Shown: piece after piece, positions 7,788 through 59,134 of the stretch
Numbering within the stretch: the stretch's first letter is position 1
How the letters are laid out: every line of letters begins with the position of its first letter
Assembly (NCBI GenBank): GCA_964509425.1
Contig: CAZDWZ010000011.1
Coordinates: 35,429 to 99,428, forward strand
DNA: 64,000 nucleotides
Source of the DNA: an uncultured Bdellovibrionales bacterium
GTDB taxonomy: Bacteria; Bdellovibrionota_C; UBA2361; SZUA-149; CAZDWZ01
Reading direction: 5' to 3'
The notes under the pieces: generated by a model
Told to the model about the DNA's origin: nothing
The model's input: only the letters and a program-made list of their open reading frames with translations
Databases searched by the model: none
Program-made: the position numbers and the translations under genes

Positions 7788-8117
7788 GGTACGGTTGCCC
7801 TCGTAGGGTGATGATTGGAATTCCTTTCCGATCCTTCTGCCTCCTTGTGAACACCACGCGAGACGCAAGCGGTCTTCACAAGAGCTGCAGAGCATTTCGT
7901 CTTTTCGTTTGAGGCGTAAAAAAGAGCGAGAACGGCCGGCTGGGCCGGTCGCATCAAAGTCTATGCGATCTTGGGAGCGAAAGTCTTGGAGTTTTTTTGT
8001 TGGAAGTAAGAATATGGAACGAGATAAAACTTCAGAGGCCTCGGCCCGAAGCATTCGTGTTTCCGCTTCCAATCTGAATTTCACCCGCAATCAAGATGAA
8101 AGCGGCTCCGTGTGGAG

Positions 8118-13505: not shown

Positions 13506-14168
13506 TTGGCTCCGGAGGTTGCGGCTATGCCGCCGTATTTCACGAATCTGCTCCTGTGGCTGGCGTTCCTGCGTACGCTGCTGCTCGAGGGCGTCAACAA
13601 GGGCGACGCGGGTGGCGTCGTCCAGCTCATGTCCGAACACTCGCTCGACCGAGAACCGGTGGACTTGGCCGGCCCGCAGTTCGACGTCACCGGCATCGAG
13701 GCCGAGGGTCTCCACGCCTTCGTCATGGAGGAACGCTTCTTCGGCGGGGCGCTCGCGGTCTCGAGGTGCATCTCGAAGGGTGTCAGCGGGCCCTTCGATC
13801 CCGAACCCGGCGTGGATCTCACAGCGCTCATCGACGAGGCGCTCAAGGCGCGCTTCGGCGAAAGGGCGACCGTGACGAGCGCACGAAGCTATGTCGTTCA
13901 TCTGCTGTCGACCCACAGTCTGCTGAGGGCGCAGAAGCTGTTCGATCACAAGTCGGTGCGCTTCGCGTTCACCCTGAACGAGCTGCAGTTGACGATGCTC
14001 GGTCGAGGGACTATCGAGTTCAAGTCGCTCATGTCGTACTTCCACCAGCTCAGCGAATGGGCGCGCGAGAGGCTGAAGGCGGAGGAGGATGCCGAGCTGC
14101 GACAGTTCTCTGATCAAATCTCCGACCTGGCGAGCTTCCTCGCGGTCATGATGCTGATGCGCGGCTGA
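13506..14168 (+). CDS. hypothetical protein in a ~70% GC island
   Basis: Best-looking frame in a high-GC block. The alternative minus-strand frame is Arg/Glu/Leu-rich, typical of an antisense artefact. Confidence 0.4.
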   Translation: MAPEVAAMPPYFTNLLLWLAFLRTLLLEGVNKGDAGGVVQLMSEHSLDREPVDLAGPQFDVTGIEAEGLHAFVMEERFFGGALAVSRCISKGVSGPFDPEPGVDLTALIDEALKARFGERATVTSARSYVVHLLSTHSLLRAQKLFDHKSVRFAFTLNELQLTMLGRGTIEFKSLMSYFHQLSEWARERLKAEEDAELRQFSDQISDLASFLAVMMLMRG

Positions 14169-28582: not shown

Positions 28583-30274
28583 ATGAAGTTTCGTCTAATT
28601 TTCTCAACGGCATTCCTCGCGCTGATCGATACGGCGCTTTTCCCCGCTCGCTTGCAACCGGCGGCTGCAGCACCGCTCGCAAATTGCGCTGAGGCAAAAC
28701 AGCTTCTCGCAGCAGTCCCCGGAACCGTGGACGTCCCGCCGCCCGCCCCGTGCGAGGCTCCGTGCACCCCATCGCGAATCGGCTGTAGTTGTCCTAATCC
28801 CACGCCGCTCCCGACGCCGACCCCCGAGCCACCCGCAACGACGACGAACGCGGCCGGAGTAGCCCCAACCGGTGGGTATACGTCGATAAGCTACGAAAGC
28901 ATTTTTGGCACCGGCATCCACCCTCAGTTTCTTACGTATGACAGAGGGAGCGTCCCGGCATGTTTGCAGCAGCGAATCGACTCGGCGTACCAAATCGCGT
29001 TTGGGATTACCCATGTCGATTCGGACAGCGAGTTCATTCGCCGGGTGCTCGGTCCATACAATCTGGGCGGAGTCGGGCAGGTAAACGTCTATAGCGGCCG
29101 AATCGTCATCGACAGCAATTGCAATCGTGTTCCGGATGACACACCGGCGGAGAATGCGATCAGCATCCGGATCATCTGTTCTCCCATATCCCTCCTCTGG
29201 GAAGCGGGAACGGAGATCGATCGCGACTTCCGGCTCGTGCGTTTTCCGCTCAACTTGAGCAAAGGCGCCGAATGGGTGGAGTGGAAGGCGTCGAAAGCTG
29301 CTCCGCTTCTCGTCTACGATCCGCTCAGAAAGCGGCAAGTCACCTCAGCAGCCGATCTCTTCGGAAACTGGAGCTTTGTCGATATCGCATCCACTCCGGA
29401 TCCAGCGAAAGCCGAGGCTCCATGGAGACACGGGTACGATGCCCTCGCGACGCTCGATCTAAATGGAGACGGCGCCATCCGGGGAGCGGAGCTCGATCCC
29501 GTTGCGCTGTGGTTTGACGAAGACCGCGACGGCGTCTCGGGAACTGGTGAAGTCGTTGGGGCGGCAGAGAAAGGTGTGACCGCACTCTATTATAAGCCCG
29601 ACAGGGTCGATGAGGATACGCACGCGATCTACGCGACGAAAGGCTTTGAAAGAGAATCAGGCGGTATTCGAATCACTGGAACTTCAGTTGACTGGTTTGC
29701 ACCGGGCGCTGGTTCACCGATTACGCTTCTTCAACACCTTCGCCGCTCACCGATTGGAAAAGCCGCCGGAGATCTTGCCATCGCACGAGCCGCCGCACTC
29801 CAGCAGGGAAATCGTGAAAATGAATCCAAGAAACAAGCGGCCGTTCAGCGAAAACGCTCCGAACAATTTGGCGGAGCATGGCGCTGGCGGGTGAACGCGA
29901 ACGATGACGACTCACAACCTCAGGGGTTTCTTCTTCTCTCGGATAAGAATGGCGAGATAAGCGGAGCAAGCGTCGTGGAAATGCTGATTCCGGGAAGTGG
30001 TGGATTGAGAATCATCGAAGCCTATCCTATTTCCGGCCGATCGTTTACGGAGCGCTCAGGCAGACGCCGCGCCGTGTTCTCCGTTTTGGAACCAAACGGA
30101 GTTTCAACCTCCGAGGTGGCGCTCGTTTCTGGCGGATTGGAGCTCGCCGGCACGACAACGCTGAAGGATGTTTCGTATCTCGGGAAAACTGTTTCGCTCG
30201 ATTACGATTGGAAGGCCGAACGGATTAAAGCGCCGAAGCCAAAAAGCCAGACGAGGCCGGAGTACGGACAATGA
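28583..30274 (+). CDS. secreted hypothetical protein (563 aa) with Pro/Thr linker and EF-hand/dockerin-like DxNGDGxI motif
   Basis: Signal peptide MKFRLIFSTAFLALIDTALFPA. PTPLPTPTPEPP linker. LDLNGDGAIRGAELD motif. Its stop overlaps the TadE-like start (ATGA). Confidence 0.55.
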   Translation: MKFRLIFSTAFLALIDTALFPARLQPAAAAPLANCAEAKQLLAAVPGTVDVPPPAPCEAPCTPSRIGCSCPNPTPLPTPTPEPPATTTNAAGVAPTGGYTSISYESIFGTGIHPQFLTYDRGSVPACLQQRIDSAYQIAFGITHVDSDSEFIRRVLGPYNLGGVGQVNVYSGRIVIDSNCNRVPDDTPAENAISIRIICSPISLLWEAGTEIDRDFRLVRFPLNLSKGAEWVEWKASKAAPLLVYDPLRKRQVTSAADLFGNWSFVDIASTPDPAKAEAPWRHGYDALATLDLNGDGAIRGAELDPVALWFDEDRDGVSGTGEVVGAAEKGVTALYYKPDRVDEDTHAIYATKGFERESGGIRITGTSVDWFAPGAGSPITLLQHLRRSPIGKAAGDLAIARAAALQQGNRENESKKQAAVQRKRSEQFGGAWRWRVNANDDDSQPQGFLLLSDKNGEISGASVVEMLIPGSGGLRIIEAYPISGRSFTERSGRRRAVFSVLEPNGVSTSEVALVSGGLELAGTTTLKDVSYLGKTVSLDYDWKAERIKAPKPKSQTRPEYGQ

Positions 30275-30756
30275 CGGCAGCCGTTTCTCGATCAAACCTC
30301 TCCGACCCGGAAGAACGTGGCGCCATCATGCTCGAGGCGGCAATCGGCTTTCCACTCTTTCTCCTCATCTTCGGAGGCGGTATCGAACTTATTCGCTTCT
30401 GCTTCTACGTGATCGGCCTCCAACTCGTTGTTACTAACGGTGTGAGAGCTTCTTCCATCGGGAACTGCGGCACAGGTGTTGTTAACTGCATACCAACAGT
30501 CAGTGCTGAACACGTGAAGGCACGGATCCTGTCTGAAGCGGCGGCGGTCGGAATAGGACTCTCCCCCGAGAGCGTGTGTATCCGCGCTGAAAGTAATCTC
30601 GACTGCACTCAAGGTCAGGACACGACCGGGAAGTCGAAGGAGCTCGTGGTGGTTCGAGTCTCCCGGCCGTTTTTTTTCTTCTTCGGATTGGGAGAGCTCA
30701 CGGTTCGTGCTGCTGCGCTTGCCCGAAACGAACCGAGACACCATGGGGCAGTGTAG
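30271..30756 (+). CDS. TadE-like pseudopilin (Flp-pilus assembly TadE/TadG N-terminal family)
   Basis: ERGAIMLEAAIGFPLFLLIFGGGIELIRF matches the TadE N-terminal segment (charged residues, then a hydrophobic helix with conserved E). Confidence 0.65.
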   Translation: MTAAVSRSNLSDPEERGAIMLEAAIGFPLFLLIFGGGIELIRFCFYVIGLQLVVTNGVRASSIGNCGTGVVNCIPTVSAEHVKARILSEAAAVGIGLSPESVCIRAESNLDCTQGQDTTGKSKELVVVRVSRPFFFFFGLGELTVRAAALARNEPRHHGAV

Positions 30757-30758
30757 CG

Positions 30759-31373
30759 ATGACCAGAATCGCAAGTACTAACAGAGACCGCTTCGAATCT
30801 GGCGTCGCACTTCTGGAGCTCGCGATTATCCTCCCGCTACTAGTCTTCATCGTTTTTAACGCGCTCGAGTTTGCTCGGCTCTCGCGCGTCATACAGGTGA
30901 GTGTCGTCCTCGCCCGTGAAGCGGTGAGCTGGTCTTATCGGAGCTGCGGGGACTTCGACGAGCCAGGCGGTTGGTCGCTGAGCGTTCAGCGGACGACTGA
31001 GTGCCTGCAAAAAGTAGTGAACACTGGAGATACATCGCCTGCAGCGCCCTCAATTCTCTCCCTCGCCCGGCAGCTAGAACCTGCGGGCGACTTCAGCATT
31101 ATCGTGAGCGTGTACCGATCCGGAGAGAGCGGAGGCCCGCTTCGGCTTGTCTCGATTGCCGGTGAAGAAGCGGACCGAGGAAGAGTGACGCGGTTTCAAG
31201 CGGTGGGGAATGAGCTCCAAGGCCCAGTGACGCTAGACGCCGCGGCGGTGCGGCGCCGCGGAAGAATCGCTGTCGCCGAAATCTATTATCCATTTTTTCC
31301 GATCTTTCGCGGTGTTCCCACCCTGGGAAGTGTTCTCGGGAGATTCGACTACTACGATGCTGCTCTACTCTAA
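30759..31373 (+). CDS. TadE-like pseudopilin (second copy)
   Basis: ESGVALLELAIILPLLVFIVFNALEFARL TadE-like N-terminus. Confidence 0.65.
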   Translation: MTRIASTNRDRFESGVALLELAIILPLLVFIVFNALEFARLSRVIQVSVVLAREAVSWSYRSCGDFDEPGGWSLSVQRTTECLQKVVNTGDTSPAAPSILSLARQLEPAGDFSIIVSVYRSGESGGPLRLVSIAGEEADRGRVTRFQAVGNELQGPVTLDAAAVRRRGRIAVAEIYYPFFPIFRGVPTLGSVLGRFDYYDAALL

Positions 31374-33147
31374 GACACCGGCGCGGTCCGCGCACGAAGA
31401 GCGGGGAGTTTTCGTGCTCACCCTCTCGATGTGGCTCATGGGGTTGATTCTCGTCGTCTGCCTGGTTGTTGATGCATCCACGCTGTACCGGCATCGTCAG
31501 CTCGTTCAACGATCCGTCGATCTGGGCGTTATCTCCGGCCTCGGGTTTCGTGCGGCGAAGGGTTGGGGCTATTTCCACGGTGATGATTTACGCGACGTCG
31601 GAAAACCTGGCGAGAAGGACAGCGAAGTGGAGGAGCATATGCGGGATACTGTGCTCGCGAATCTCTCAGTGCGCGGCATCTCGATCCCGAGAGAATCCGT
31701 GAGCGCGAGCTTCTCCAGCTATACTGATCGTGTCGAAGTATCGCTTCGCTATGATGCCCCGCTCTTACTCGTGAGCTATGTTCCCGGGATCGGCGGCTGC
31801 TCAACGGGGAGTCACACCTGTCCCGTTTTCGGCTCCGCGACGGCCGAGCTCCAACCCGCGAATATCGGTCTTGCCATAGATACCTCCGGCTCGATGAACT
31901 GTCCCGCAACGGAGGCGGGAAGTGCCGGCTGCGAATGTTTGACGAAGGACGGTTGCGCGAGCATCCCCGTAAGCGATCGAAAGCTCGCGTATCTAAAAGA
32001 AGCCGTGAAGGCGTTCATCGCGTTCTTTAACCCAAACCGGGACCGCGTCGTTCTCGGTCCGTTCAACACGGTTGGAAAAGTCGCCTTTTCGGTCAAAGAC
32101 GGCAGCAGGAAAGCTCTCCCCTTCGGGTTCGCAGGAGTTCACGAGCGAGCGACGGATAAAGCGCGGATTAATGCGTTCTATGATGAGATCGATCATCTCG
32201 ATGCCGCGGGGAACACGAATATATGTGACGGGATCTCGCGAGCGTTCTCCGATCTAAAGACCACAGAGCCCAACATTACTGAAGAGTCTCCGACGTTCCT
32301 GGTTCTCTTCTCGGATGGCGCACCTTCGGCAGGACGGTTTCACTTCACGTCTTACTCGAATAGTCTTCAAACGCAGCGCGCGAGTAATCCGGCTATGGCC
32401 GGTGACTGGTGGATCGGTACCACTGAGTGGGTAAACGCCGAGGCGGGTGGAAGCGTGCGGCGTTGGCTCGGTCCTTCGCCGCTCGTTCAGATAGAAGACA
32501 TCCCCTACGGCTATGCCGCAGGGACTCCCCCGGCAGGGGCTGATACCTGCGGCGATCTCGTTTCCGCGGACGACGATTTCCCGAGGAGTTTTAATCCCTG
32601 TCTCCGATCGTTTCGCTTCGATGGTGCTGCGCAAATTGGTGAAGCTCGAGAAGTGAGCGGAAGCGAAGGCGAGCGAGATTTCGACCATGTGAATGATTTC
32701 ACGAACGAAATGTACTACGCGCAACAATTCTATTACTGCGCGATCGAGGCAGCGGATGCCATTCGAGAGCAAGCGGGTGGCTTGGTCTATACGATAGGTC
32801 TTGGTGCCGAAGCATTTAAAGGATCCGTCGACCCGCTGCAAAACCCCACCGATCCGCTTCGCCGGAAAGAATATCTGCTCCGACGCATCGCGCTGGATCG
32901 CCATAATGGGAAAAACGATCCTCCCTTTGGTCCTCGGCGGCAAATCACGTTGAACGACCCGAACGACTCCGCGAAAGGACGAAATACGACGGTCGGGTAT
33001 GACGAGTACAGAAACTACGAGGTCTTCGCCCGTGATCCGGTCCTCCGCAATCTCGAAGGTTCTTATGAAGGCACGAATGATCCGAAGCGGCTGAAAGCCC
33101 TGTTCATTCGAACCGCAAAGGACATTCTGATTCGACTCACGGACTGA
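31357..33147 (+). CDS. TadG-like protein with von Willebrand factor A domain
   Basis: ERGVFVLTLSMWLMGLILVVCLVVDASTLY TadG-like N-terminus. vWA MIDAS-like GLAIDTSGSMNC and LVLFSDGAPS. Start at the internal ATG, giving a 17-nt overlap with the upstream gene. Confidence 0.65.
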   Translation: MLLYSKTPARSAHEERGVFVLTLSMWLMGLILVVCLVVDASTLYRHRQLVQRSVDLGVISGLGFRAAKGWGYFHGDDLRDVGKPGEKDSEVEEHMRDTVLANLSVRGISIPRESVSASFSSYTDRVEVSLRYDAPLLLVSYVPGIGGCSTGSHTCPVFGSATAELQPANIGLAIDTSGSMNCPATEAGSAGCECLTKDGCASIPVSDRKLAYLKEAVKAFIAFFNPNRDRVVLGPFNTVGKVAFSVKDGSRKALPFGFAGVHERATDKARINAFYDEIDHLDAAGNTNICDGISRAFSDLKTTEPNITEESPTFLVLFSDGAPSAGRFHFTSYSNSLQTQRASNPAMAGDWWIGTTEWVNAEAGGSVRRWLGPSPLVQIEDIPYGYAAGTPPAGADTCGDLVSADDDFPRSFNPCLRSFRFDGAAQIGEAREVSGSEGERDFDHVNDFTNEMYYAQQFYYCAIEAADAIREQAGGLVYTIGLGAEAFKGSVDPLQNPTDPLRRKEYLLRRIALDRHNGKNDPPFGPRRQITLNDPNDSAKGRNTTVGYDEYRNYEVFARDPVLRNLEGSYEGTNDPKRLKALFIRTAKDILIRLTD

Positions 33148-33295
33148 CGAGTTCCTGTCGGGTTCAAGCCTTCAGATTATCTAGAAAATATCACGTGGCC
33201 ATTTAGCGTATTCCCCAGCTGCACAAATGCGGCTAGTTTCGGCTTCACAACGAATCGGGTTACCCAGCTTTCTACAAAGATTCCAAAGGGGAGGA

Positions 33296-34141
33296 ATGAA
33301 AGGAACATTCGCAATAGGTCTTGTCGCAGCAGTTTGCGGCCTTGCCGCTCTCCACTTCTACCGTCCGGAGTTGAATCCGCCGGACAATCTTCAGCCCGAT
33401 CTGGTAAAGGCTATTTACGCCCCGGCCAGTCCGCTCAAAGTGTTCCTCGTAGATAAAATTCAAACTCCAGGTGGTACCAACTACCTCGTTCGCGGAAATC
33501 TGCCTCTCAAGTCTGACGGCAGCTACGCCTACTCAGAGCTCGCTGATACTCTGAAGAGTAAGCTCGGCATCACGTTGAGCGAACACAAGCTCGTGAACTT
33601 TTCGATCATCGACAATGTCGACGATAAAAGCCGTGAAGCCCTGAAGAATGAGTTTGTTGCGTTCGGGTTGTCGAAAGATCGATTTGAGAGCAAATATTCG
33701 CGGCAAAATTGGCCGCCCTTCGAGAAAGGCCTGGACCTCGCCACGCCGGTCGGCACTTCTGTCAACGGACATCGCGGCAGCATGATTTGGTTTCCGGTGC
33801 AGGGTTGTTCTGAAGAAGCAGATTGCCGAGCCATACAGGAGTCTCAATTTGGATTCCCTCAAGCGGTGGATGCGCTTGCCCAAAACATGAAGAGCAACGA
33901 ACCCACAATTATCTACGCCCATTGTTCACAAGGCGTCGATCGCATCGCGGCTCTGATGGCGGGGTATCTCTTGAAGCACAAAGGTGCCAGCGTCGATGAT
34001 GTATTGAACCCAGAATCTTCGAACGGAGTACAGATCCCGGTTCGGGGATTGGCGGACGCGCAAGCGGGGAAGAATTCAAAGTCCCGTTGGGCGCCGGATT
34101 ACGAGCGACTCGTCCGCTGGTATGCCGCGACCCTCGGGTGA
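33296..34141 (+). CDS. secreted protein-tyrosine/dual-specificity phosphatase-like protein (CX5R)
   Basis: GGGGAGG SD before ATG. Signal-peptide-like MKGTFAIGLVAAVCGLAALHF. P-loop IIYAHCSQGVDRIAAL fits the HCX5R signature of Cys-based phosphatases. Confidence 0.5.
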   Translation: MKGTFAIGLVAAVCGLAALHFYRPELNPPDNLQPDLVKAIYAPASPLKVFLVDKIQTPGGTNYLVRGNLPLKSDGSYAYSELADTLKSKLGITLSEHKLVNFSIIDNVDDKSREALKNEFVAFGLSKDRFESKYSRQNWPPFEKGLDLATPVGTSVNGHRGSMIWFPVQGCSEEADCRAIQESQFGFPQAVDALAQNMKSNEPTIIYAHCSQGVDRIAALMAGYLLKHKGASVDDVLNPESSNGVQIPVRGLADAQAGKNSKSRWAPDYERLVRWYAATLG

Positions 34142-37324: not shown

Positions 37325-37807
37325 TTAGCGGCGTGGTCCTTGGGGATTCACTGGGATTGTGGTGATTGGACCAATCGGCACGGTCGTTTGTCCGGGGACA
37401 CGGCATTGGTAGTTCCCACCTCCGAGAAGCGTCGTCCGAACGCATCTCTGTGGAGACCGGCATCCAGTGCTCCGGCAATCACCACCCGCAGCGTAAGGCT
37501 GCGCGGCGGCAGCGGCGCCTACCAAGAATTCTTCACCACCCGGAGAAGCCGCATCGGCTTCCGTCTCAGGGGAAATTACGATTGGATTGGAAAGAGTGAG
37601 ATCAGGATTTACGTTCTGCGTGATGATGGGTCCGGTGGTGTTCGCCTCGGCGTAGACGGTCACTCCCGCCGGGTCTTGCGCGATGAATCCGCTCCCTACG
37701 GAATAAACGGGGAAATCTTGGGCTGTGGCTGTAGCGGCGCTCAGTAAAAGCGTGGCCAAGATCATTAATGGAGCGCGATTTAATCGATTCTTACAAGGGT
37801 TCTTCAT
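37325..37807 (-). CDS. secreted hypothetical protein
   Basis: Signal peptide LMILATLLLSAATATAQ. Gly/Ala/Pro-rich. Confidence 0.45.
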   Translation of the reverse strand: MKNPCKNRLNRAPLMILATLLLSAATATAQDFPVYSVGSGFIAQDPAGVTVYAEANTTGPIITQNVNPDLTLSNPIVISPETEADAASPGGEEFLVGAAAAAQPYAAGGDCRSTGCRSPQRCVRTTLLGGGNYQCRVPGQTTVPIGPITTIPVNPQGPRR

Positions 37808-38027
37808 TTATTTCTCCAGTCTGCGTGGTGTGTGGTTTCGGTTGCAAAACGTAGACAGGAGAGCGTTCGGAAGATTACGCAATTTGTAATCGTTTCTTGA
37901 TAATTGGGAGTATCTCGTAATCGAAGCAATCTTGAAAAGATCCGATTCAAACAGGCGCGAACGTTTGGGAATAAACGAGGCTCGGGGAGGGGGAAAGACC
38001 CGGCCTTCCTCCCTCGCCGAGATCGAC

Positions 38028-39113
38028 TTACGCTACTCCACTGTCGTCGTACGGTGTTGGGGTCGGCGTTGGTGTCGGTGTGATCCCAGTCGTAAACGCA
38101 AACCAGATATTGTTACATTCATTTCGCTGCTGCACGATGGCGTCTCTCAAGAACCACGAAAAAGTTGACGTCGCGGAACTACACGTGTTCTCGCACGACG
38201 CGAACTGAGCGCTTATCGCTGCGTAACTCTCCGCTGATGTTCCGCACTGCTCCGGGAGGCCCGCTGTCGGAATTGCATTCACACAGGACTCACATTCGGC
38301 GTCTGCCGGATTCGTCGGAGGAGTGTTGATCCAATTCCACCAATAGTCATTGCACTGCGTCTTAACAGCTTCCAAAGTGATGAATGAGAAAATTCTCGAC
38401 GCATCAGTTGCGGCGTTACACTGATTCTCGCAATCGGCGATCTGCGTGAGTGCCGCGCCGTAGTTCGCAGCGCCTCCGCAGTTAGACGGTATATCCATGC
38501 CCGAAATATTGATCGCGCACGCGCTGCACAATTCGTCCGCGGGATTCGGTGGAGGTGTGTTGATCCAATTCCACCAGTGGTCGTTACACTCTGATCGCTT
38601 CGCCTCGATAACAAAGATGGAGTAGACCGCCAAAGGTGCCGTCGAAGTGATACATTGACTCTCGCAGTTTGCGAGAAGCGTCCCGGCGGATGCATAGCCC
38701 GCTGAAGAAGTGCAGTTCGTTGCGGCGTCGAAATTTGAAACCTCGGTAGTACAGACATCGCAGGCTTCATTTGCCGGATTCGGCGGAGGAGTGTTGATCC
38801 AAGTCCACCAGTGATTGTCGCATTCTTGCCGCTTGCTTGCGAGCAGTATGACGTTGAGGAAGGCGTTTGGATCGGTAGCGTTACCGCACTGATCGCTACA
38901 TGCTGATATCCGCGCGCCGGTGGACGCATACGCATCGGCGGGAGCACAGTGCTGAGTCACGTCCAAGCTCCAGATTTCGCTGGTGCAGGTCTCGCATTCA
39001 GCATCAGCCGGATTCGGAGGCAGGTCGGAATCCGTCAAAGCGAGGACATCTCCCGCTCCGAAGAGAATCGCGAACAGTGTCAACATTTGGTACAGAACTT
39101 TTCGAGAATCCAT
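38028..39113 (-). CDS. secreted protein of four novel ~70-aa Cys-containing tandem repeats, C-terminal PTPTPTPTP tail
   Basis: Signal peptide MLTLFAILFGAGDVLA. Four units: DxPPNPAD(A/E)EC(E/D)xC...(Q/A)C.(N/S)AT......F......(C)N(D/N)(H/Y)WWNWINTPP. Confidence 0.6.
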   Translation of the reverse strand: MDSRKVLYQMLTLFAILFGAGDVLALTDSDLPPNPADAECETCTSEIWSLDVTQHCAPADAYASTGARISACSDQCGNATDPNAFLNVILLASKRQECDNHWWTWINTPPPNPANEACDVCTTEVSNFDAATNCTSSAGYASAGTLLANCESQCITSTAPLAVYSIFVIEAKRSECNDHWWNWINTPPPNPADELCSACAINISGMDIPSNCGGAANYGAALTQIADCENQCNAATDASRIFSFITLEAVKTQCNDYWWNWINTPPTNPADAECESCVNAIPTAGLPEQCGTSAESYAAISAQFASCENTCSSATSTFSWFLRDAIVQQRNECNNIWFAFTTGITPTPTPTPTPYDDSGVA

Positions 39114-39807
39114 CGGACAACTCCTTCCCTCTAGGTGTTACAATTCGTTCTCTTTCGAAAACTCGACGCTCGGCTCGAAAGGATTGCTCGTCCCTCTCTT
39201 GGTTCCATCAACCGATTCGCCAGTTCACAGAGTTGGAGCCTCTTTTGATTCTCGTTCAGCAAAGCGCGAGAGGACGCGTCAAAGACGCGTAGATCCATCG
39301 TCACGACGAATGCGCGTGATCGGAGAGATTCCAACTATGAAAAAGAGAACAGCCAAAGCGCAGTTAGTCATCTCGCGGAGAGTTCGCCCGGATGCTTTTG
39401 TTCGCTTGCGCCGTTCAGACCCAGCGATCCGGAAACAGGCGCAGGAACCGACGCGCGGTCAAACCGCCGCCGCGCAAACTTGCAGAACGAAACGAAATGA
39501 TTTTTGCTTTTCGGCGTTATGAAGTTCTCGCTCAGGCAAGGCCGGAGACACCCATTTTTGTGACGAATTTGTAAGTTTCCCCCGAAGCGGCGTTCCGCCT
39601 GCTTGCGTAACGGCCTGCATTTCTTTGCTTTCCGCGTGGACTCTTTCATCGAAGATCAACTGCTCCACGGCAGGCGCACGCCTGCCCGAAGCGTCCGCAT
39701 AACATCCTCAGGCTGTCGATAAATCAACGTAAAAATTCCACTCGCTTTTTGAGCGCTCTCGTTCGTCTGTGCCAACGAGAGAGCTGAGACAAGGGAGGCG
39801 ATAGTTT

Positions 39808-39879
39808 TATTTTGTGGACACATTCGAGATTGTCTCCGCGTCTCCGCGCGCGCGATTTGGAATGTGCCCACAAAAATCA
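39808..39879. promoter_or_regulatory. 20-bp-arm inverted repeat (TTTGTGGaCACATTC ... GAATGTGCCCACAAA) with GC-rich spacer, upstream of the 39926 ORF
   Basis: Arms are reverse complements with 2-3 mismatches. Spacer tgtctccgcgtctccgcgcgcgcg. Candidate operator or attenuator. Confidence 0.4.
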
Positions 39880-39925
39880 GCCGGGGAAGCAGGTGGTCGG
39901 TCGTACCGCCCTTATCCCGTAGAAT

Positions 39926-40195
39926 ATGAGTGCGATTAACTTCGTGCTCGAAAGGTTAGTTCCGATGGTCGAACCAGGAAGAATCTTCACCTTGAGCTCC
40001 GCCGGTCCTTTGCCGGAATGGCTTTGGACAACTCGCGAGGCGACTTTTTACTTGCGAGAATGCGGCGTGCCTAACGGTGAACTCCTTCGTTTGGTGCAAA
40101 AGGTCCCGGTAGAGAAACGAATGGAAATTTGCCGAACGAGTTGTAGTCGACAAGTAGCAGCAATCAAAATCGCTGAGTTGGCTTTGGATTCTTAA
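39926..40195 (+). CDS. small hypothetical protein
   Basis: 89-aa ORF downstream of the palindromic site. Confidence 0.3.
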   Translation: MSAINFVLERLVPMVEPGRIFTLSSAGPLPEWLWTTREATFYLRECGVPNGELLRLVQKVPVEKRMEICRTSCSRQVAAIKIAELALDS

Positions 40196-40238
40196 CAACA
40201 ATTGGAGTTAGGGTTTCGCCCTCCCTTATCTCCGACTT

Positions 40239-40979
40239 TTACCTTTGTACTTGTGAGCTCCCCGACGGCATGAGGGTCGAGTCACTGGGTGTCTGAGGAC
40301 TGCCTCGCGCTTCACTTCGATATGCTTGGATGTCTCTTAGAATCTGCTTCTCGAGTGACGCCAGTTTTGATCCACTATTCCAGAATCTTCCCCCCGCGGC
40401 AGCTGCGAATTCTTGGAGGCACCCTCCTTCTCCATCGTAATCCACTGCGATTGTCGAGATGGTGATACCCATGGATTTTAGTTTATTCAGGTCCTCAATC
40501 ATGTCGCTGATGCACTCGTCCGTGGCTCCATCGCTCAGAAGAATAAAGTGCTTGCGAGTTGCCGGACAGTTTTCGAGCTGCGTCTTCGCGAACGACAACG
40601 CGGCGGTAAGATTAGATCTTGGCGAACTTACGATATTCTCAAAACTCTCTGCTGCTCGTTCCCTGACTTCTTTTACGTATGCAGGCGGAAGGAGGAGTGA
40701 CGCCTGTTCCGCGAAGCGTATCGCGGCAACGTAGAACTCATCATCCAACTGCCGGATTACATTGGGAACAGCCTTTCTCATCCGATCAAAGTTATCCAGC
40801 CGGTTAACGCTATTTGACGTATCGAGGATGAAGACTAACGCCGGAGTGTTCGCACCGCACTTTGCCGCAGGAGGCGGAGCAGAGTTAGAATCTGCAGAAG
40901 ATTCGGCGGCGATGCTCAGTGCTAGGGAAAGGGGCAGCAGCACCTTATGCCACCCGGGTAGTTTGAGATAGGCTAGCAC
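40239..40979 (-). CDS. secreted von Willebrand factor A domain protein
   Basis: vWA motifs LVFILDTSNSV and HFILLSDGATDE. Probable GTG start giving M/VLAYLKLPGWHKVLLPLSLALSIAAESSA signal peptide. The 5-prime end is uncertain (ORF extends to 41231). Confidence 0.5.
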   Translation of the reverse strand: MLAYLKLPGWHKVLLPLSLALSIAAESSADSNSAPPPAAKCGANTPALVFILDTSNSVNRLDNFDRMRKAVPNVIRQLDDEFYVAAIRFAEQASLLLPPAYVKEVRERAAESFENIVSSPRSNLTAALSFAKTQLENCPATRKHFILLSDGATDECISDMIEDLNKLKSMGITISTIAVDYDGEGGCLQEFAAAAGGRFWNSGSKLASLEKQILRDIQAYRSEARGSPQTPSDSTLMPSGSSQVQR

Positions 40980-41076
40980 TTTGCGATCTTGGTCAACCCT
41001 CACTTGAATGCACGCGAGTAACGAAAAGCAGGTAACCTTTCGCCTGCATCCGGCCCGGAGTAACTTGAGGTTTCGT

Positions 41077-41487
41077 ATGAAGAAAGCTCTCATGATTGTT
41101 GTGACCGTGGTCATCCTACTTGGATTATTCGGATGGGTGCTCCTGTCGTGGTTCAGCGCGGCTATCCACCTTTCGTATACGAAAGAGCGAGTCGTTGTTT
41201 TTGAGAAAGGAATTAGTTCCCTTTCTTCCATGTTCGCTCAGCACGCTTCGACAAGAACGTTAGTCCTGCAAAGTGTTCCGGTCAATGAAATTCGGCGGAA
41301 ATGCTCCACAGAGAAAAGGTTCCATGAGCCAATTGCCAAGGAGGAGCTGGAACTCTCGTTCCATTTTTTCTGCTTTCAATTTGACGAGCGAGAGAACCTT
41401 GTGCAGATAGATTTCTTCTCACGAAAGGTGTGGGAGCGAGTACACGAAAAGCTAGAGGCGAACAGCGCCCTTGAACCGACGAAATAG
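41077..41487 (+). CDS. hypothetical membrane-anchored protein
   Basis: MKKALMIVVTVVILLGLFGWVLLSWF N-terminal TM anchor. Confidence 0.4.
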   Translation: MKKALMIVVTVVILLGLFGWVLLSWFSAAIHLSYTKERVVVFEKGISSLSSMFAQHASTRTLVLQSVPVNEIRRKCSTEKRFHEPIAKEELELSFHFFCFQFDERENLVQIDFFSRKVWERVHEKLEANSALEPTK

Positions 41488-41594: not shown

Positions 41595-42068
41595 ATGATC
41601 CCAGCGAAAATCATAAAAGGCGATGCGACCCATGCCGCAGAAGTAATCGACATCGTCTTTACCGCGCTTCGTTCCTTTGGGATTGAGCCCTCGCCGGAGC
41701 GCTGGGAAGCTGAGATCGTGGCGTTTGGCAACAACGCGTCGCACGTCCATGAATACGTAGCCGTGCAAGACGAGCGGGTCGTCGGCCTCGTGGTTCTCGA
41801 AGAATGTCACGAAGCGATGATCCTCCGGGATCTCTACGTCGACGATAGAACACGAGGCCAAGGTATCGGCCGCGCTCTTCTCGAACATGCCGTTTCCATC
41901 GCGCGAGCGAATGGGTTCCGGCTTTTGAAGCTCGAAACACGAGAAGCCTTCACCGCTGCGGTTCGATTGTATGAGTCAACGGGGTGGGAGCGTGGACCGG
42001 ATCTCAGAGGGCCGGACGATCCGCCTGAAGGACCAGACCGAGGTTATTTTCTCCGACTCACGGATTAG
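41595..42068 (+). CDS. GNAT family N-acetyltransferase
   Basis: VVGLVVLEE...LYVDDRTRGQGIGRALLEHAVSIARANGF is the acetyl-CoA-binding motif A (Q/RxxGxG/A). Confidence 0.7.
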   Translation: MIPAKIIKGDATHAAEVIDIVFTALRSFGIEPSPERWEAEIVAFGNNASHVHEYVAVQDERVVGLVVLEECHEAMILRDLYVDDRTRGQGIGRALLEHAVSIARANGFRLLKLETREAFTAAVRLYESTGWERGPDLRGPDDPPEGPDRGYFLRLTD

Positions 42069-42119
42069 CGACGGCCTCGGGATACATCGCGATATTCTCA
42101 AGCAATCCGCCTTCGTTTC

Positions 42120-42365
42120 TCACATTGGATTTTGAAAAAGCTGAAGAAGAAAAACGAGCAAAATTAATCCAACCGATAACGGCACGACAGCATAGACGAA
42201 GAGAAAAAGCCCTCGCCGCATGAGCGCGGTGTGTTCTCCCCTGCGAGAAGGTCTGGCGATGTAGATGAATATGGCGGCCGCGATGCAAAAAACGCCGAGG
42301 ACTGAAATCACACAGGCAATTGACAAGAGGCCGATCACCAAAGCGTAGAGGAAAAAAAGCACCAT
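42120..42365 (-). CDS. small hydrophobic membrane protein
   Basis: 81-aa ORF with two TM helices. Could be spurious. Confidence 0.3.
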   Translation of the reverse strand: MVLFFLYALVIGLLSIACVISVLGVFCIAAAIFIYIARPSRRGEHTALMRRGLFLFVYAVVPLSVGLILLVFLLQLFQNPM

Positions 42366-42689
42366 CTGCAGATTTTACAACCATTCCCGCTGCGGAGCGA
42401 GCTGCTATTTGCCGGGACCTCGACCCCCAACTCCAACGAAGCATCTTTTCGAGATGTTTTCCTCTGAATATCCCAAACGAGCTTGATCTCTTCACAAGAG
42501 ACAGGCAATGCTCCGGCCCTTATTCTCCGGGGTGCGCTGTCGATCCCGGTCCGTTGCTGTTTCACATTCGAATCGCCTTTTAAAATCGCCCGGTCTTCGA
42601 TTGCGCGCGCTCGCGCCCTCGAGGATCTTGGGTCTTCAACCCTGTTTTGACCGATAAAGAAATCAATACCTTCCCCCTACGAGGAACGT

Positions 42690-43733
42690 GTGATGTTTCC
42701 GAACGATTCTCACGCTCGTGCACTCGCCGCGCTGCGAGCGAGCATCGACGCAAAAACCGGCCGGCTCTTGGAGCCGGGGAGTGGATCGAGAGACCTTTTC
42801 TGGTTTGGAGAGTTGACCCGCTTCAACTCCCGACGCGGAGGTGGCTTCGACGCAAACAACTTCGCCGCGACATGCCTTGCTTGCGGGAGGGAACTCGCCG
42901 GTGGAACGGAAGTGACGATGCGAACCCTGCTCCTTCTCGGAACGGTGAAAAGCAAACACCTGCTCCGCAGCAGGGCAGTTCTCGGCATCATCTCGCGCGA
43001 GGCCCGCGCCTTCACCGGTGGGTTCACTCCCGGGGAGAGAGCAGCGCAGTCGAGAGCGTTCGCGAATCTTCGCTGCGGGGACGACCCGGTGCTCGACGAC
43101 CACGTCGCGGCACTCCGTTCAGGAGCGGACTGGCTCTTCGACGATGCCGTCGCGATGTTGTGGGCACTGCTTCTCGCCGGTCGCGATATCAACAGTCTTC
43201 TCGGCGACGACATTCTGTTTGAAACCGGCCTCGGTGGCAGGGGGCAGTTTCACCGCTACCGGGACTTGTCGCACCTTCGCCTGATGTGCGGCTTGAAAGT
43301 TCCTGAAGAGATCGAGGTCCGTGAAAAAGCAGCCCGGGCTCCGCAGCACACGCTGGCGGGGTCGCAGAGTCCGCTCGAAGAAGATGTGGTGGAAGCGCTC
43401 GCCGGGATCGGTCTTCCCTTCGAGCAGCAGGTTCCCATCGCCGGATACTCAGCCGACTTCGTGGTCCAGACGGACGCGGGGCCGGTTGTCGTCGAGGCGA
43501 TGGGACTTGCCATGCATTACCTCTCCGAACTGCGCGCGCTGGCACTTCCGGAGCCGAGCGAAAGTCCGACGCCGTGCTGCATCACTGAAGAGCTGCGAGG
43601 TGAGGATGTCCTCCGCTTCAGGATCTACCGGAAGTTGGGATACCGAGTGCTTCCTCTCCGCAACAGCGACGTGCCGCGGAGACTCGACAGAAGAAAAGAA
43701 GTGATCCATGCCGGACTGCTCGCCGCGGTCTGA
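42690..43733 (+). CDS. hypothetical protein with C-terminal DUF559/Vsr-like (restriction-endonuclease-fold) domain
   Basis: The C-terminal ~110 aa (VVEALAGIGLPFEQQVPIAGYSADFVVQTDAGPVVVEAMG...DVLRFRIYRKLGYRVLPLRNSDV) follow the DUF559 pattern of a conserved Asp/Glu core, then LxxxGxxVlRfxn. Lies in a ~64% GC block. Confidence 0.45.
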   Translation: MMFPNDSHARALAALRASIDAKTGRLLEPGSGSRDLFWFGELTRFNSRRGGGFDANNFAATCLACGRELAGGTEVTMRTLLLLGTVKSKHLLRSRAVLGIISREARAFTGGFTPGERAAQSRAFANLRCGDDPVLDDHVAALRSGADWLFDDAVAMLWALLLAGRDINSLLGDDILFETGLGGRGQFHRYRDLSHLRLMCGLKVPEEIEVREKAARAPQHTLAGSQSPLEEDVVEALAGIGLPFEQQVPIAGYSADFVVQTDAGPVVVEAMGLAMHYLSELRALALPEPSESPTPCCITEELRGEDVLRFRIYRKLGYRVLPLRNSDVPRRLDRRKEVIHAGLLAAV

Positions 43734-43817
43734 CTGCACCGGACCAGAGGTTTTCGCTGTGGTTTAGCGAAGACCTTTGGTCCGGTGCAGCAAAATGCGC
43801 GGAGCGAGAACGTGTTT

Positions 43818-44801
43818 CTACCAAATCTCGCTCCGGCAAAAGTGACGAGGCTTCGCGCCGGTGAAGTAATCGCAAAGTTTGAGGGCGGCATTTCGAAAAG
43901 CCTCGCGCGGCGAAGACTGATCGAGGATCGCCAGCTGATACCTCAAACACTGGTCGTTTAGCTCAGGCGAACCGCTCTGTGCGGCAAACTCTCGGCAGAT
44001 CAGCGCTTGGATTCGACCCCTTTCCCGATCAGCTTGAGCTTCAGAGTCGGTAGAAACCCGCACGAGTCGGTTTGGGTCCGATTCCGCGTTGGTCTCTTTC
44101 TCGAATCGTGCTTTCAACTGCTCACCCGTGTCGATGTCCAAGTGCATGAAGATTCCGTCTATTTGATAGACGCAGTAAGGACGTTGGTTCACGTCCGGCT
44201 CTAAAACTTCCGATTCAAACGGCACAACTGGCTTATCGTTCGGTAGCCGACGGCAGAATTGGATCATGTCTTTGATTCCTGCCCCCTCCTGATGCAGCTT
44301 GTAGAAGACAGTCCCGATGCAGTCAGAAGTGAAGGTGCTCTGCCCGTTGAGACACATCTCTGCGGCTTTGAGAGGTGTATTCGCCCCCGGAACGAATAAT
44401 ACAGCCGCCACGACCGCGGTGGCAAAAACTTCTCCCCCGACTGTGGTTGAAGATCCCACGGTGTGCCGCATGGCTCGGCACCCGAGGTAGAACAGTGTGA
44501 ACCACCCGATGAGATTCGAAATTCCGAGCACGATCGGAAAGTAGAGGACCAAATAGATTCCGAAGTTACTTCCGATCACACTGCCCGAGCCGAGGACGCT
44601 GGCCAGGCCTTCCAGGAAATAGGTCGGCCAGCTCACGAGGACCTTGAGCGGCAGAACGGCGATATCGTGTACCTGCGAAAAAATGAGGTATGTTGGGTCC
44701 CTCACCAGCCGGAGGCTTGTTAGAGCAAGACCCGATGACAGAATGAAGCTGATCGCAAGATCAAGCCAGCGATCTCTGGTTGTGTTGAGAGTCTCCGTCA
44801 T
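43818..44801 (-). CDS. hypothetical polytopic membrane protein
   Basis: Six or more TM helices. Confidence 0.5.
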   Translation of the reverse strand: MTETLNTTRDRWLDLAISFILSSGLALTSLRLVRDPTYLIFSQVHDIAVLPLKVLVSWPTYFLEGLASVLGSGSVIGSNFGIYLVLYFPIVLGISNLIGWFTLFYLGCRAMRHTVGSSTTVGGEVFATAVVAAVLFVPGANTPLKAAEMCLNGQSTFTSDCIGTVFYKLHQEGAGIKDMIQFCRRLPNDKPVVPFESEVLEPDVNQRPYCVYQIDGIFMHLDIDTGEQLKARFEKETNAESDPNRLVRVSTDSEAQADRERGRIQALICREFAAQSGSPELNDQCLRYQLAILDQSSPREAFRNAALKLCDYFTGAKPRHFCRSEIW

Positions 44802-44967
44802 GCGTATGCCTCCGGTTAGACGACTGCTTTTAGAATTATGGATGGGTGGAAGGACGAAAGCTGGTGCGCTAGATACGGATGTATGAATTTTCGCTTACAA
44901 GTGCGAAAGACACGTGAATTCTGAACTGATGAGGTATCCGGTGACCGAACGGCCGGCCGAGCGCTCA

Positions 44968-45387
44968 ATGGTGAAAGTAATGAAAATCGAGCTTCGTGTT
45001 GTTTTTTTAGTCGCAACCGTAGCGCTTTTTACGCTGCCGAATCAGGCGAACGCCGCGGAGCCCTCACCTCCGAGGAGTGGTGTCGTAACCGTAACGCGAG
45101 ATCCGAATCCAGTTCCTACTGAGCTTCCGCAGAATTGGTATGAAGAAATGTCCCGCCCCAAAGCTGGTTATGTCCCGAACGCCGAGACGGCGATTGCGAT
45201 CGCAAAAGCAGTATGGGTCCCAATTTATGGGAAATCTGTCTTGAAACAGGAGCCGGTCCGGGCGTCCTTGGTGGGTGACGAATGGATCGTGAGCGGCACC
45301 TTTCAGGGCACAGGATTTGGGGGTGTTGCGACCGCCCGTATCTCGAAGTCGAGTGGATGTATCGTTGAGGTCATTCACGGGGAGTGA
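44968..45387 (+). CDS. secreted hypothetical protein
   Basis: Signal peptide MKIELRVVFLVATVALFTLPNQANA. Start is Met19 or Met23 of the ORF. Confidence 0.45.
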   Translation: MVKVMKIELRVVFLVATVALFTLPNQANAAEPSPPRSGVVTVTRDPNPVPTELPQNWYEEMSRPKAGYVPNAETAIAIAKAVWVPIYGKSVLKQEPVRASLVGDEWIVSGTFQGTGFGGVATARISKSSGCIVEVIHGE

Positions 45388-45413
45388 GGTGAGCGGCGTT
45401 TGAATGATATGAA

Positions 45414-45932
45414 GTGGCCGATCTGGGAGACTTTTCGATGCGACGCGTCGAAGCGCTCGGCGTTTCTGAATACATCGACCTTTATCGAGAGATCGGTCGT
45501 GACTACCTCTGGAACTATCGGCCGGGACAGAGCCTAACCGAGATTGCGGAGATCATCCATTCGCCGAAGACGTGGATCTATTTGCTCTTCGACCGAGAGC
45601 GCGCCGTTGGAATGGCGGAACTCGACGTTTCAAACCCGGAGGATATTGAGCTCGTTCATTTTGGATTGATACCGCGCCTGCTGAATCGGGGTCTTGGCAG
45701 GCTTTATCTTCAGAACGTGCTTCGGGTGGTGTGGGAAAGCGGGGCGGCTCGGATATGGCTGAGCACCTGCGGAATGGATCATCCGAATGCCGTGACGTTC
45801 TATGAAGTCGCCGGATTCGTCATTTTCAAGACCGCGCGCGGAGAATTCAAGGATTGGCGATTCACCGGTTTTTACGACATGTCAGATGCTCCCCGGATCC
45901 CCTTCGGAGTTCGAGTGAGTTCCGGAACATAG
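45414..45932 (+). CDS. GNAT family acetyltransferase
   Basis: LVHFGLIPRLLNRGLGRLYLQNVL fits motif A. NAVTFYEVAGF fits motif B. Confidence 0.55.
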   Translation: MADLGDFSMRRVEALGVSEYIDLYREIGRDYLWNYRPGQSLTEIAEIIHSPKTWIYLLFDRERAVGMAELDVSNPEDIELVHFGLIPRLLNRGLGRLYLQNVLRVVWESGAARIWLSTCGMDHPNAVTFYEVAGFVIFKTARGEFKDWRFTGFYDMSDAPRIPFGVRVSSGT

Positions 45933-53787: not shown

Positions 53788-54247
53788 AATCGATTTATCG
53801 GCAGGGGCGCGCTTCGAGTCTCGTGCGCATTCGCACAATTAGGCACTTTTTTCGCGAAACGGCGCAGTTTTATTGAAACCGGCGGATATTTTGACGCAAT
53901 CAACTCATTGCAAATACGCAAATACATCAGTTTCCTCGGCAGAAGGCCGAGGCACGTAAGTATGTGATTCGCAATTGGTCAGAGGCGATTCACGTACCAA
54001 CATCCTTGAGGTTGTCGCATCTTGACGATTCTTCGGCACTCTCAAAGCTTCGTCGGAAGCCAGAAAACTTCAATTGCTCGTTACACAAAATTGCAGAGCG
54101 ATTGTTTAGCGAGTGCAAAACGGTTGCTCAGCAGATCGCGATTCGAAATTGAATTGATCAGAGTTTGCGATCAACTTTCTTGTGTGTCACGCGGACGAGT
54201 CTCCGCGTCATATTTCCTTGAGAACTGCAATTTCATCGAGGGCACAG

Positions 54248-57698: not shown

Positions 57699-58535
57699 TC
57701 ATACCTTCAGCTCGCGCCGGATCGCCCTGAACTTCTTCACCTGTTCGGTGAGGGCGATCTCGCAAGGCAATCGTTCGATCGAACTTGCGCCGTAGAACCC
57801 GCCGACGATCGGGACGCGGTCAAGGACGTACTTCGCGTCGTCCGGCATCGAGATGACGCCGCCGTGGCAGAGGACGATGACGTCCCCTCGCTCCTCCCGC
57901 GCTGCCTCGGCGATCGCCCGCACTTGGGCGACGGCCCCGTCGAGCGTCACACGAGCCTCCGCACCGATGCTCCCTCCGGTGGTGAGTCCGAGGTGGGCCA
58001 CGATCACGTCGGCCCCCGCCCGCGTCATGCGTTTTGCCTCGCTGGCGTTAAACGCATACGGACTCGTGAACATGTCGGCCTCGTGCGCGGCCGCGATCCA
58101 GTCCACCTCCTTGTCGTACCCGAAACCGGTCTTCTCGAGATCGACACGGAAGTTCCCGTCAATCAACCCCACCGTCGGATAGTTCTGGATGCCGCTGTAC
58201 CCGAGCGCCTTTAGCCTCGGGATGAAGGTGTGCGGTGGATAGCGCGGGTCGACCCCGTGCACGCCCGCGAGAACCGGGGTCTTCGGCGCGGCGGTGATGA
58301 TCTCCGCAGCCATCTCGAGGACGAGCGCGTTCGCATCGCAGAATGACAACATCCCGGCTAAACTCCCGAGCCCCGCCATGCGGAAGCGGCCGGAGTTGTA
58401 GACGATCAGCAGGTCGATCCCGCCCACCTCGGCGAACTTCGCGCTCAGGCCGATGCCTGCGCCGCCGCCGATGATCGGCTCGTCGCGTTCGATCTTCGCC
58501 CGGAGACGGGCGAGGATGTCGGTCCGCTTGAACAT
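57699..58535 (-). CDS. phosphoenolpyruvate-hydrolase-like TIM-barrel protein (PF09370-like)
   Basis: Full-length similarity by eye to the 'TIM-barrel signal transduction / PEP hydrolase' family: IIGGGAGIGLSAKFAEVGGIDLLIVYNSGRFRMAG...GVHG...ADVIVAHLGLTTGG. Start at the internal ATG. Confidence 0.6.
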   Translation of the reverse strand: MFKRTDILARLRAKIERDEPIIGGGAGIGLSAKFAEVGGIDLLIVYNSGRFRMAGLGSLAGMLSFCDANALVLEMAAEIITAAPKTPVLAGVHGVDPRYPPHTFIPRLKALGYSGIQNYPTVGLIDGNFRVDLEKTGFGYDKEVDWIAAAHEADMFTSPYAFNASEAKRMTRAGADVIVAHLGLTTGGSIGAEARVTLDGAVAQVRAIAEAAREERGDVIVLCHGGVISMPDDAKYVLDRVPIVGGFYGASSIERLPCEIALTEQVKKFRAIRRELKV

Positions 58536-59134
58536 GTCGACTCCTGGAACTGGGTAATGGTTTGCCGGCCGGCTGGCGGGCAGGCGCTCCGAAAGGCGTT
58601 CGGAAGACACCTCTAAAAACGCGAGACGCATTCTTAGAGATGTCTTCGAAATACCAAGGAACGAGACGAAGCAGAAATCGTGTCGATAGAACCTGAAAAA
58701 AGATGTGCTCTCGTATCGAAAATAGAAATGAGAGTAGAGATTCTTCCCCTATGCGAAGCTGTATTGATGAAAGGGACGCTGAATACTATGCCTCCGTGCG
58801 GAAACACAAATCGACCTTGAGAATTTTCGATTTCTTTAAATGCGTTTGATACTCGCGGTGAACATCTGTGAGCAAATTGTATTCAACATCATGACTTAGC
58901 AATACGGAGGGACAGCGACGAACTTCGAGAACGGAGTTCACTGCAGATCACCGGCGCACGCGTGGAGGAGCGCAGACCTGTAATGATCGGATTCCACTCG
59001 GTGAATCCCCTAGAATATGCTCTTTGAGAGCTCCGAATTCGCAAACTCCGGAAAGATTATTGACCTATGCGGGTCCAACTCCGCTAATAAACGAAGCGGC
59101 TTAGGAAATCGGCCGTCATTCGTCGCGGAGCCTC

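Follow-up and report, generated by a model that had tools for sequence, protein, structure and literature searches.

The window analysed here, a stretch of 64,000 nucleotides, carries an open reading frame that matches no described sequence family and translates into a string of cysteine-containing repeats, and the question it raises is whether this is a genuine gene and, if so, what kind of protein it would make. The original prediction described a secreted, disulfide-stabilised protein of an unrecognised family, built from four tandem repeats and tethered to the surface by a proline- and threonine-rich (PT) tail, and proposed that it acts as an adhesin or carbohydrate binder. In the list of open reading frames the coding sequence (38028..39113, minus strand) is complete, with 361 aa and a stop codon, and comprises a putative signal peptide, four 78-aa repeats and the PT tail; an identical protein was called in both the NCBI and the Logan assemblies. 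Reading upstream, we found a Shine-Dalgarno-like sequence, GGGAAGGAG (39121..39129, minus strand), 7 nt 5' of the ATG. Downstream, RNA folding yielded a GC-rich hairpin (37981..38021, minus strand; -29.7 kcal/mol, z = -2.0 against shuffles) that begins 7 nt past the stop codon and is followed by GUUUAUU. This hairpin is possibly an intrinsic terminator, and it was missed by a consensus terminator scan because its U tract is weak. Rfam over the whole window, a tRNA search and a promoter scan returned nothing useful. Several long overlapping open reading frames occupy other frames at the locus.

When the protein was compared with itself, we observed 87 identities at an offset of 78 residues, whereas the best offsets taken from each of 1000 shuffles averaged 34 identities (sd 2.4) and reached a maximum of 44. 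The tandem four-fold repeat is therefore real, with a period of 78 aa (234 nt) in place of the ~70 aa first proposed, and its four consecutive units run in register from aa 31 to aa 342. Unit 1 spans aa 31-108 (38790..39023), unit 2 aa 109-186 (38556..38789), unit 3 aa 187-264 (38322..38555) and unit 4 aa 265-342 (38088..38321), all on the minus strand. Each was placed from the unit alignment, together with an AF2 model for unit 1, the same helix positions in a full-length model for unit 2, the full-length model and tblastn for unit 3, and tblastn and helices at equivalent positions for unit 4. By tblastn every unit matched the other three (E 1e-8 to 1e-23), and a search of the units against the whole window gave nothing credible outside the four repeats. 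A unit 1 match at 13631-13699 (E 0.013) was dropped, as it fell in overlapping junk frames and lacked the Cys pattern.

In pairwise comparison, the units are 31-46% identical in amino acids and 38-57% in nucleotides; unit 2 shows 41% identity with unit 1 and 46% with unit 3, and unit 4 is the most divergent, with 31-36% identity to units 1-3 and a one-residue insertion. Fourteen columns are invariant across the four units. Six of these are Cys, two more per unit than the original prediction had counted, and they occupy unit positions 10, 13, 26, 42, 46 and 68 with the spacing C-x2-C-x12-C-x15-C-x3-C-x21-C, all 24 Cys of the protein being in register. The tryptophan-rich WWxWI cluster, which had been described as invariant at each unit boundary, takes the form WW[NT]WI and is confined to the internal junctions, of which there are three (aa 102-106, 180-184 and 258-262); unit 4 ends in IWFAF instead, its junction motif having degenerated to IWFAFTT.

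Nei-Gojobori counts between units gave saturated pS values of 0.61-0.84 and pN values of 0.32-0.45 (pN/pS 0.38-0.72), and we conclude that the duplications are old and that the units are under protein-level selection. Tandem Repeats Finder reported no DNA-level repeat except a 12-bp unit at 38052-38078, which encodes the PT stretch. Conserved residues are written with different codons in different units, which places the conservation at the level of the protein and not of the DNA: at the junctions only 4 of 11 conserved degenerate codons are the same in every copy, and in the unit interior 0 of 7. With no more than 4 of 11 such codons identical, gene conversion was rejected as the source of junction conservation. 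Because the four units act as each other's homologues, the internal repeats validate the orphan gene. The open reading frame at 38028..39113 is genuine, and the gene is probably lineage-restricted.

Searches for relatives bore out the claim that the family is unrecognised. Neither Pfam, queried with the whole protein and with two single units, nor NCBIfam contained any family matching at E<=10; PADLOC gave no match at E<=1, and PHROGs gave only noise (8- and 13-residue matches at E 0.058 and 0.53). From 5.8 billion protein clusters, a word-indexed search retrieved nothing but the protein itself. An HMM built from the four units and run against 1.84 billion representative proteins recovered the protein and one artefact (P0002), which was dropped as a translated DNA satellite in which 27 residues were matched ten times. 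A degenerate pattern and tblastn detected no relative in GTDB species genomes, JGI metagenomes or IMG/VR, and the exact back-translation of WWNWINTPP, a search that the original prediction had suggested, gave no hit in metagenomes. In the PDB, a sequence-profile search produced a single match at noise level, Norrin at E 1.4, and Foldseek found nothing at E<=0.001 with the full-length model against the PDB or with a unit against BFVD. In all, the unit domain has no detectable relative in ~15 billion proteins and, as far as every library searched shows, the sequence family is undescribed and the fold ordinary. The orphan status is partly a sampling effect because the lineage is thinly sampled; the locus turned up on just two contigs, its 149-kb one at NCBI and an identical one of 2.7 kb in Logan.

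The N-terminus carries a plausible Sec-type signal, in keeping with the proposal that the protein is secreted. The predicted Sec (SPase I) signal peptide, assigned from hydropathy and the -3/-1 rule, covers aa 1-25 (39039..39113, minus strand) and consists of MDSRK, VLYQMLTLFAILFGAG and DVLA, with LT following the cleavage site; by eye, MDSRK makes a short, basic n region, an h region of 16 residues follows and a VLA/L site closes the signal, and the -3/-1 rule would place cleavage at aa 25/26. Residues 6-24 are the sole hydrophobic 19-mer window of the protein (Kyte-Doolittle 1.75), so its only hydrophobic segment is N-terminal, and residues 26-30 (LTDSD) lie between the predicted signal peptide and unit 1. 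The signal sequence has no twin arginine, and the first Cys does not appear before aa 40, meaning that there is no lipobox. The mature protein of 336 aa (~35.9 kDa, pI 4.05) contains 38 Asp+Glu against 9 Lys+Arg, with a net charge of -6 or -7 per unit.

At the opposite end, the tail GI(TP)5YDDSGVA (aa 343-361; 38031..38087, minus strand) was read from the sequence and is predicted to be disordered. The PT stretch that had been noted is present as (TP)5 at aa 345-354, but it does not form the very end of the protein, as YDDSGVA follows. The surface tether built on this stretch was not supported: only seven residues come after (TP)5, and we found no TM helix, no LPXTG-like motif in the sequence and no match to anchoring families in NCBIfam, a collection that carries PEP-CTERM and T9SS sorting-domain models. 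Among the recognised sorting signals (sortase LPXTG, PEP-CTERM, T9SS CTD and lipoprotein lipobox), the protein has none.

One unit was modelled, as the original prediction had also suggested. AF2, which is generous towards idealised helical sequences, gave unit 1 a pLDDT of 93.2 and a pTM of 0.79 from an alignment of four rows that all come from this single protein, with helices at 5-18, 22-25 (short), 29-47 and 53-76. In a separate single-sequence AF2 model of the whole protein (mean pLDDT 75.8), these helices recurred at matching positions in every unit, and each unit is thus predicted to be a three-helix bundle. The full-length model also contained a helix at aa 3-17 in the signal peptide, a low-pLDDT linker at aa 19-28 and a tail with pLDDT <50 at aa 350-361; its pTM of 0.31 means that the domains are confident and their mutual arrangement undefined. 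As a prediction, an exported, beads-on-a-string arrangement of four bundles is reasonably secure. Fold matches were generic, with BAG and spectrin bundles at 4-8% identity, and the closest known domains are likewise generic three-helix bundles (BAG domain, spectrin/plakin repeats, PhoU and staphylococcal protein A-type modules). The repeat unit shares the predicted three-helix bundle with the spectrin repeat and BAG, while neither the Spectrin nor the BAG profile of Pfam matched it.

Closer examination of the predicted helices indicates how the cysteines could pair. In a hydrophobic-moment analysis with the Cys columns excluded, the buried face of helix 1 comprised C10 and C13 along with A6 and I17; C42 and C46 shared one flank of helix 2. 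For helices in antiparallel register with a rise of 1.5 A per residue, i+j of ~55-56 would fit the pairs C10-C46 and C13-C42, and C26 and C68 would lie at the same end of the bundle. As the number of invariant Cys per unit is even and the protein appears to be exported, the disulfide-stabilised module first proposed is the most likely reading. Helix 3 is the longest of the three, with six or seven consecutive apolar residues in its first half, a hydrophobic moment near zero and the Trp cluster in its last turn. A simple soluble bundle would accommodate such an apolar helix poorly, and additional packing, oligomerisation or the binding of a hydrophobic ligand may be involved. The conserved residues as a whole would be best explained as structural, serving the helix cap, the disulfides, the helix end and the junction. 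Since only units with a successor keep the Trp motif intact, we read the 24 conserved residues running from C68 of one unit to C13 of the following one as a putative inter-domain joint; degeneration of the motif only after the last unit is what a role in inter-unit packing would lead one to expect.

Our best explanation of the whole, to which we give about an even chance of being correct, is that the gene encodes a Sec-exported scaffold or binding protein made of four disulfide-stapled bundles. The Sec pathway would export the product, and removal of the signal peptide would leave a strongly acidic mature protein of ~36 kDa (pI ~4) in which four small three-helix bundles, 78 aa apiece, are strung together. 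By helix-capping rules, N4-P5-A6-D7 would form the N-cap box of helix 1, and helices 1 and 2 would form an antiparallel hairpin that is probably stapled by the C10-C46 and C13-C42 disulfides, with a third disulfide, C26-C68, probably tying the helix 1-2 loop to the long helix 3. Helix 3 would run into the WWxWI Trp cluster and be stopped by T78-P-P-P, four residues that may constitute the entire linker to the next unit, and the conserved 24-residue junction is probably a fixed joint that would turn the chain into a semi-rigid rod. The variable faces of the helices, along with helix 3 and its unusually apolar character, would serve as working surfaces. The most likely role would be that of an extracytoplasmic scaffold or binding protein resistant to oxidation and proteases, which would be free in the periplasm or the medium and lack a covalent anchor; the scaffold or binding function itself is a guess.

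Cys-rich proteins of planctomycete envelopes offer one point of comparison for this scaffold reading. The YTV proteins, which were recovered from SDS-soluble cell-wall fractions, resemble the repeat protein in being exported, Cys- and Pro-containing, of envelope type and confined to a narrow lineage (PMC8567305), and they belong to the phylum in which the host was placed from its protein matches. The repeat protein differs from them in having no YTV-domain Pfam match at E<=10 and no YTV tripeptide, and its Cys count per unit suggests purely intradomain bonds. As far as the libraries show, what is new here is a secreted tandem helical-bundle protein that would combine a novel disulfide and junction design with a known fold.

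Hydrophobic-ligand or lipid binding, with disulfide-locked units that would open or pair to bury an apolar ligand, strikes us as an unlikely alternative. It would give a purpose to the run of six or seven apolar residues in helix 3, to the near-zero moment of that helix and to its Trp-cluster end. Saposins, plant nsLTPs, elicitins and insect odorant-binding proteins are all small, secreted, all-alpha proteins with 3-4 disulfides that bury apolar ligands. Among these, prosaposin provides a parallel in layout, being a secreted series of four tandem all-alpha modules of ~80 aa whose six Cys apiece form three disulfides, an architecture that the four helical units with six Cys each mirror. Beyond this layout the likeness fades, as the Pfam families SapB_1 and SapB_2 are absent at E<=10, and the repeat unit has neither the Cys spacing nor the four- to five-helix fold of the saposins.

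Metal binding appears distinctly improbable. Here the helix-borne CxxC and CxxxC thiolates would coordinate Cu(I), Zn or another soft metal within the bundle, a proposal that draws on the placement of C10 and C13 at core a/d positions, on C42 and C46 facing the same interface and on the very acidic character of the protein. The precedent lies in the Csp proteins, four-helix bundles that bind 13-20 Cu(I) per monomer, mostly via Cys thiols lining the bundle core; Csp1 and Csp3 share with the repeat protein a helical bundle with core-facing Cys and an exported form, Csp1 types being exported with a Tat signal (PMC7558416). The repeat protein, in contrast, has three helices instead of four, six Cys per unit of which four are candidate ligands, no Met/His entry site and no Csp/DUF326 Pfam match at E<=10, and its signal lacks a twin arginine and is Sec-type by inference. 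With a Sec-type signal, folding would be expected in an oxidising periplasm, where paired Cys normally oxidise, and six Cys per unit pair off exactly.

The surface adhesin or carbohydrate binder of the original prediction, held at the cell surface through the PT tail, is in our estimation just as improbable as metal binding. An exported protein of tandem modules with an aromatic (Trp) cluster is in line with it, as is a PT linker like those of secreted glycan-active proteins. Several observations nevertheless argue against it. No recognised type of anchor follows the PT stretch, no feature of carbohydrate binding came to light, and the units are predicted to adopt a small, all-alpha three-helix bundle as opposed to the beta-sandwich of a CBM or an Ig-like adhesin fold. 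The position of the Trp cluster at the terminus of helix 3, at the junction, and its degeneration in the last unit point to a role in packing. Finally, the repeats are old and divergent, whereas those of length-variable adhesin stalks are typically near-identical.

Two further readings concern the fate of the individual units. By analogy with prosaposin and alpha-hairpinin precursors, the protein might be a prokaryotic counterpart in which four autonomous, disulfide-locked mini-proteins act on hydrophobic ligands or membranes, either cleaved between WINT and PPPNPAD or left linked, and we consider this a long shot. Still less probable, to our minds, is a polyprotein precursor that would be cut at its junctions into four free disulfide-rich mini-proteins of ~78 aa serving as toxins, signals or antimicrobials. 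We know of no bacterial precedent for such a precursor. The strongly conserved junctions and variable interiors would suit it, and so would the order of signal peptide, Cys-module cassette and short unrelated tail, which is the layout of type-2 alpha-hairpinin precursors (PMC7191063). Against it, the junction residues are well explained structurally, as helix cap and helix stop, and no protease, maturation or export genes lie nearby.

The plant alpha-hairpinins that inform both readings carry the motif XnC1X3C2XnC3X3C4Xn in a helix-loop-helix and likewise combine a signal peptide with a multimodular cassette (PMC7191063). The predicted pairing of CxxC on helix 1 with CxxxC on helix 2 resembles their CX3C...CX3C helical hairpin; like them and the mitochondrial twin-CX3C/CX9C proteins, the repeat unit would have a pair of antiparallel helices that each bear two Cys spaced by one helical turn, so that two parallel rungs form. 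It departs from the alpha-hairpinin motif in that its first half-motif is C-X2-C and that 28 residues, among them an extra Cys, separate its two half-motifs. It also has a third helix and a third Cys pair, measures 78 aa as against short peptides, and comes from a bacterial host. No sequence similarity was detected, and the likeness is an analogy of pattern only.

That the reading frame is a chance product of GC-rich DNA and not a real gene is scarcely credible: the absence of homologues and the long overlapping frames might suggest it, but against them stand the four protein-level repeats, in which synonymous sites are saturated and non-synonymous ones constrained, the 24 in-register Cys, the Shine-Dalgarno sequence and signal peptide, and a fold predicted with confidence.

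If the structural prediction of the disulfide-stapled scaffold holds, this undescribed family would equip a very common fold, the three-helix bundle, with a Trp/Pro junction and three intradomain disulfides, and would represent a natural small, hyperstable and modular scaffold of some interest for protein engineering and for the study of planctomycete envelopes, which are unusually rich in protein. The finding has no bearing on any long-standing question, the fold being generic, the uncultured lineage sparsely sampled and the context uninformative.

The genomic context offers no functional clue, and the neighbours are unrelated or orphan. None of the neighbouring genes suggests an operon partner, a maturation enzyme, a protease or a dedicated exporter. 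The neighbourhood is an accessory-looking mix of orphan signal-peptide proteins, VWA proteins, weak TadE-like open reading frames, GNAT acetyltransferases, an Imm-NTF2-2 immunity domain, a weak DUF559 nuclease-like match and an AT3-SGNH acyltransferase. An attempt at synteny through the VWA gene adjacent to the repeat gene (40239-41231) failed, as it has no relative above 31% identity. The window also encodes a HEAT-repeat protein and a DUF1501 protein, and the best genome matches of the latter fall in Gemmataceae, Planctomycetaceae and other Planctomycetota MAGs at <=53% identity; from these matches the host was read as a planctomycete that lacks a close species representative. A conserved PEP-hydrolase-like enzyme (57699-58631) has one relative at 92% identity, on a 1.25-kb contig from run SRR25392350, with all others at <=66%. 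GC3 in the region of the repeat gene is 0.55-0.61, compared to 0.80-0.84 in conserved genes.

In the AF2 model of the repeat protein (38028-39113, minus strand), helix 3 of the predicted three-helix bundles spans unit positions 53-76. At positions 53-61 each of the four units (38088-39023, minus strand) carries six to seven apolar residues in a row, with the runs FLNVILL, VYSIFVI, IFSFITL and FSWFL across the units, and because these residues are consecutive the hydrophobic moment of the helix is near zero. The apolar surface of helix 3 exceeds what would be expected for a lone three-helix bundle, hinting at inter-unit packing, oligomerization or binding of a hydrophobic ligand.

The repeat protein gene and its neighbors (38028-41231) have a GC content at the third codon position of only 0.55-0.61, compared to 0.80-0.84 in conserved genes such as those for the DUF1501 protein (6453-8090) and the PEP-hydrolase-like enzyme (57699-58631). 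This lower value is compatible with an acquired or a weakly expressed accessory region. Within the approximately 1.1 kb upstream of the repeat protein (39114-40238) we found no convincing gene, Rfam match or sigma-70-like promoter; the interval contains a basic 93-aa ORF (39368-39649, minus strand) and an 89-aa ORF (39926-40195, plus strand), both without a Pfam match. Among 5.8 billion protein clusters, no relative of the neighboring VWA-domain protein (40239-41231, minus strand) exceeds 31% identity, showing that public data cover the whole lineage thinly, beyond the repeat protein alone. A relative of the host organism exists in a separate sequencing run, SRR25392350, where a 1253 bp Logan contig (L082) encodes a PEP-hydrolase-like enzyme with 92% amino acid identity to that of the host. 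The assembled data yielded no orthologue of the repeat protein.

The next gene downstream (37325-37807, minus strand) lies 220 bp from the repeat protein on the same strand and encodes a 160-aa protein with a clear signal peptide (MKNPCKNRLNRAPLMILATLLLSAATATAQ) and four Cys residues in its C-terminal stretch (CRSTGCRSPQRC...QC), for which searches of Pfam, PHROGs and PADLOC returned no match. This gene has a GGAG ribosome-binding site to itself, and a strong hairpin (37981-38021, minus strand) stands between it and the repeat protein gene, so it is probably transcribed independently.

Further afield, the 41595-45932 segment has the flavor of an accessory island. It encodes two GNAT acetyltransferases (41595-42068 and 45414-45932), a weak DUF559/REase-like match falls at 42690-43733, and the protein at 44914-45387 carries the polymorphic-toxin immunity domain Imm-NTF2-2 (E 8.5e-15). 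We also noted a weak DSP/Tc-R-P phosphatase-like ORF (33227-34141) in this connection. Elsewhere, a 970-aa ORF (54182-57094, plus strand) matched nothing in Pfam at E<=0.001. Four ORFs also run in series on the plus strand at 28583-33147: one, of 563 aa, matches no Pfam family; two are weakly TadE-like (30271-30756, E 2e-3; 30759-31373, E 3e-4); and one encodes a protein of 611 aa whose match to VWA is weak. The latter three matches fall under Pfam cut-offs. This arrangement resembles a Tad-pilus accessory (TadE/F/G-like) cluster.
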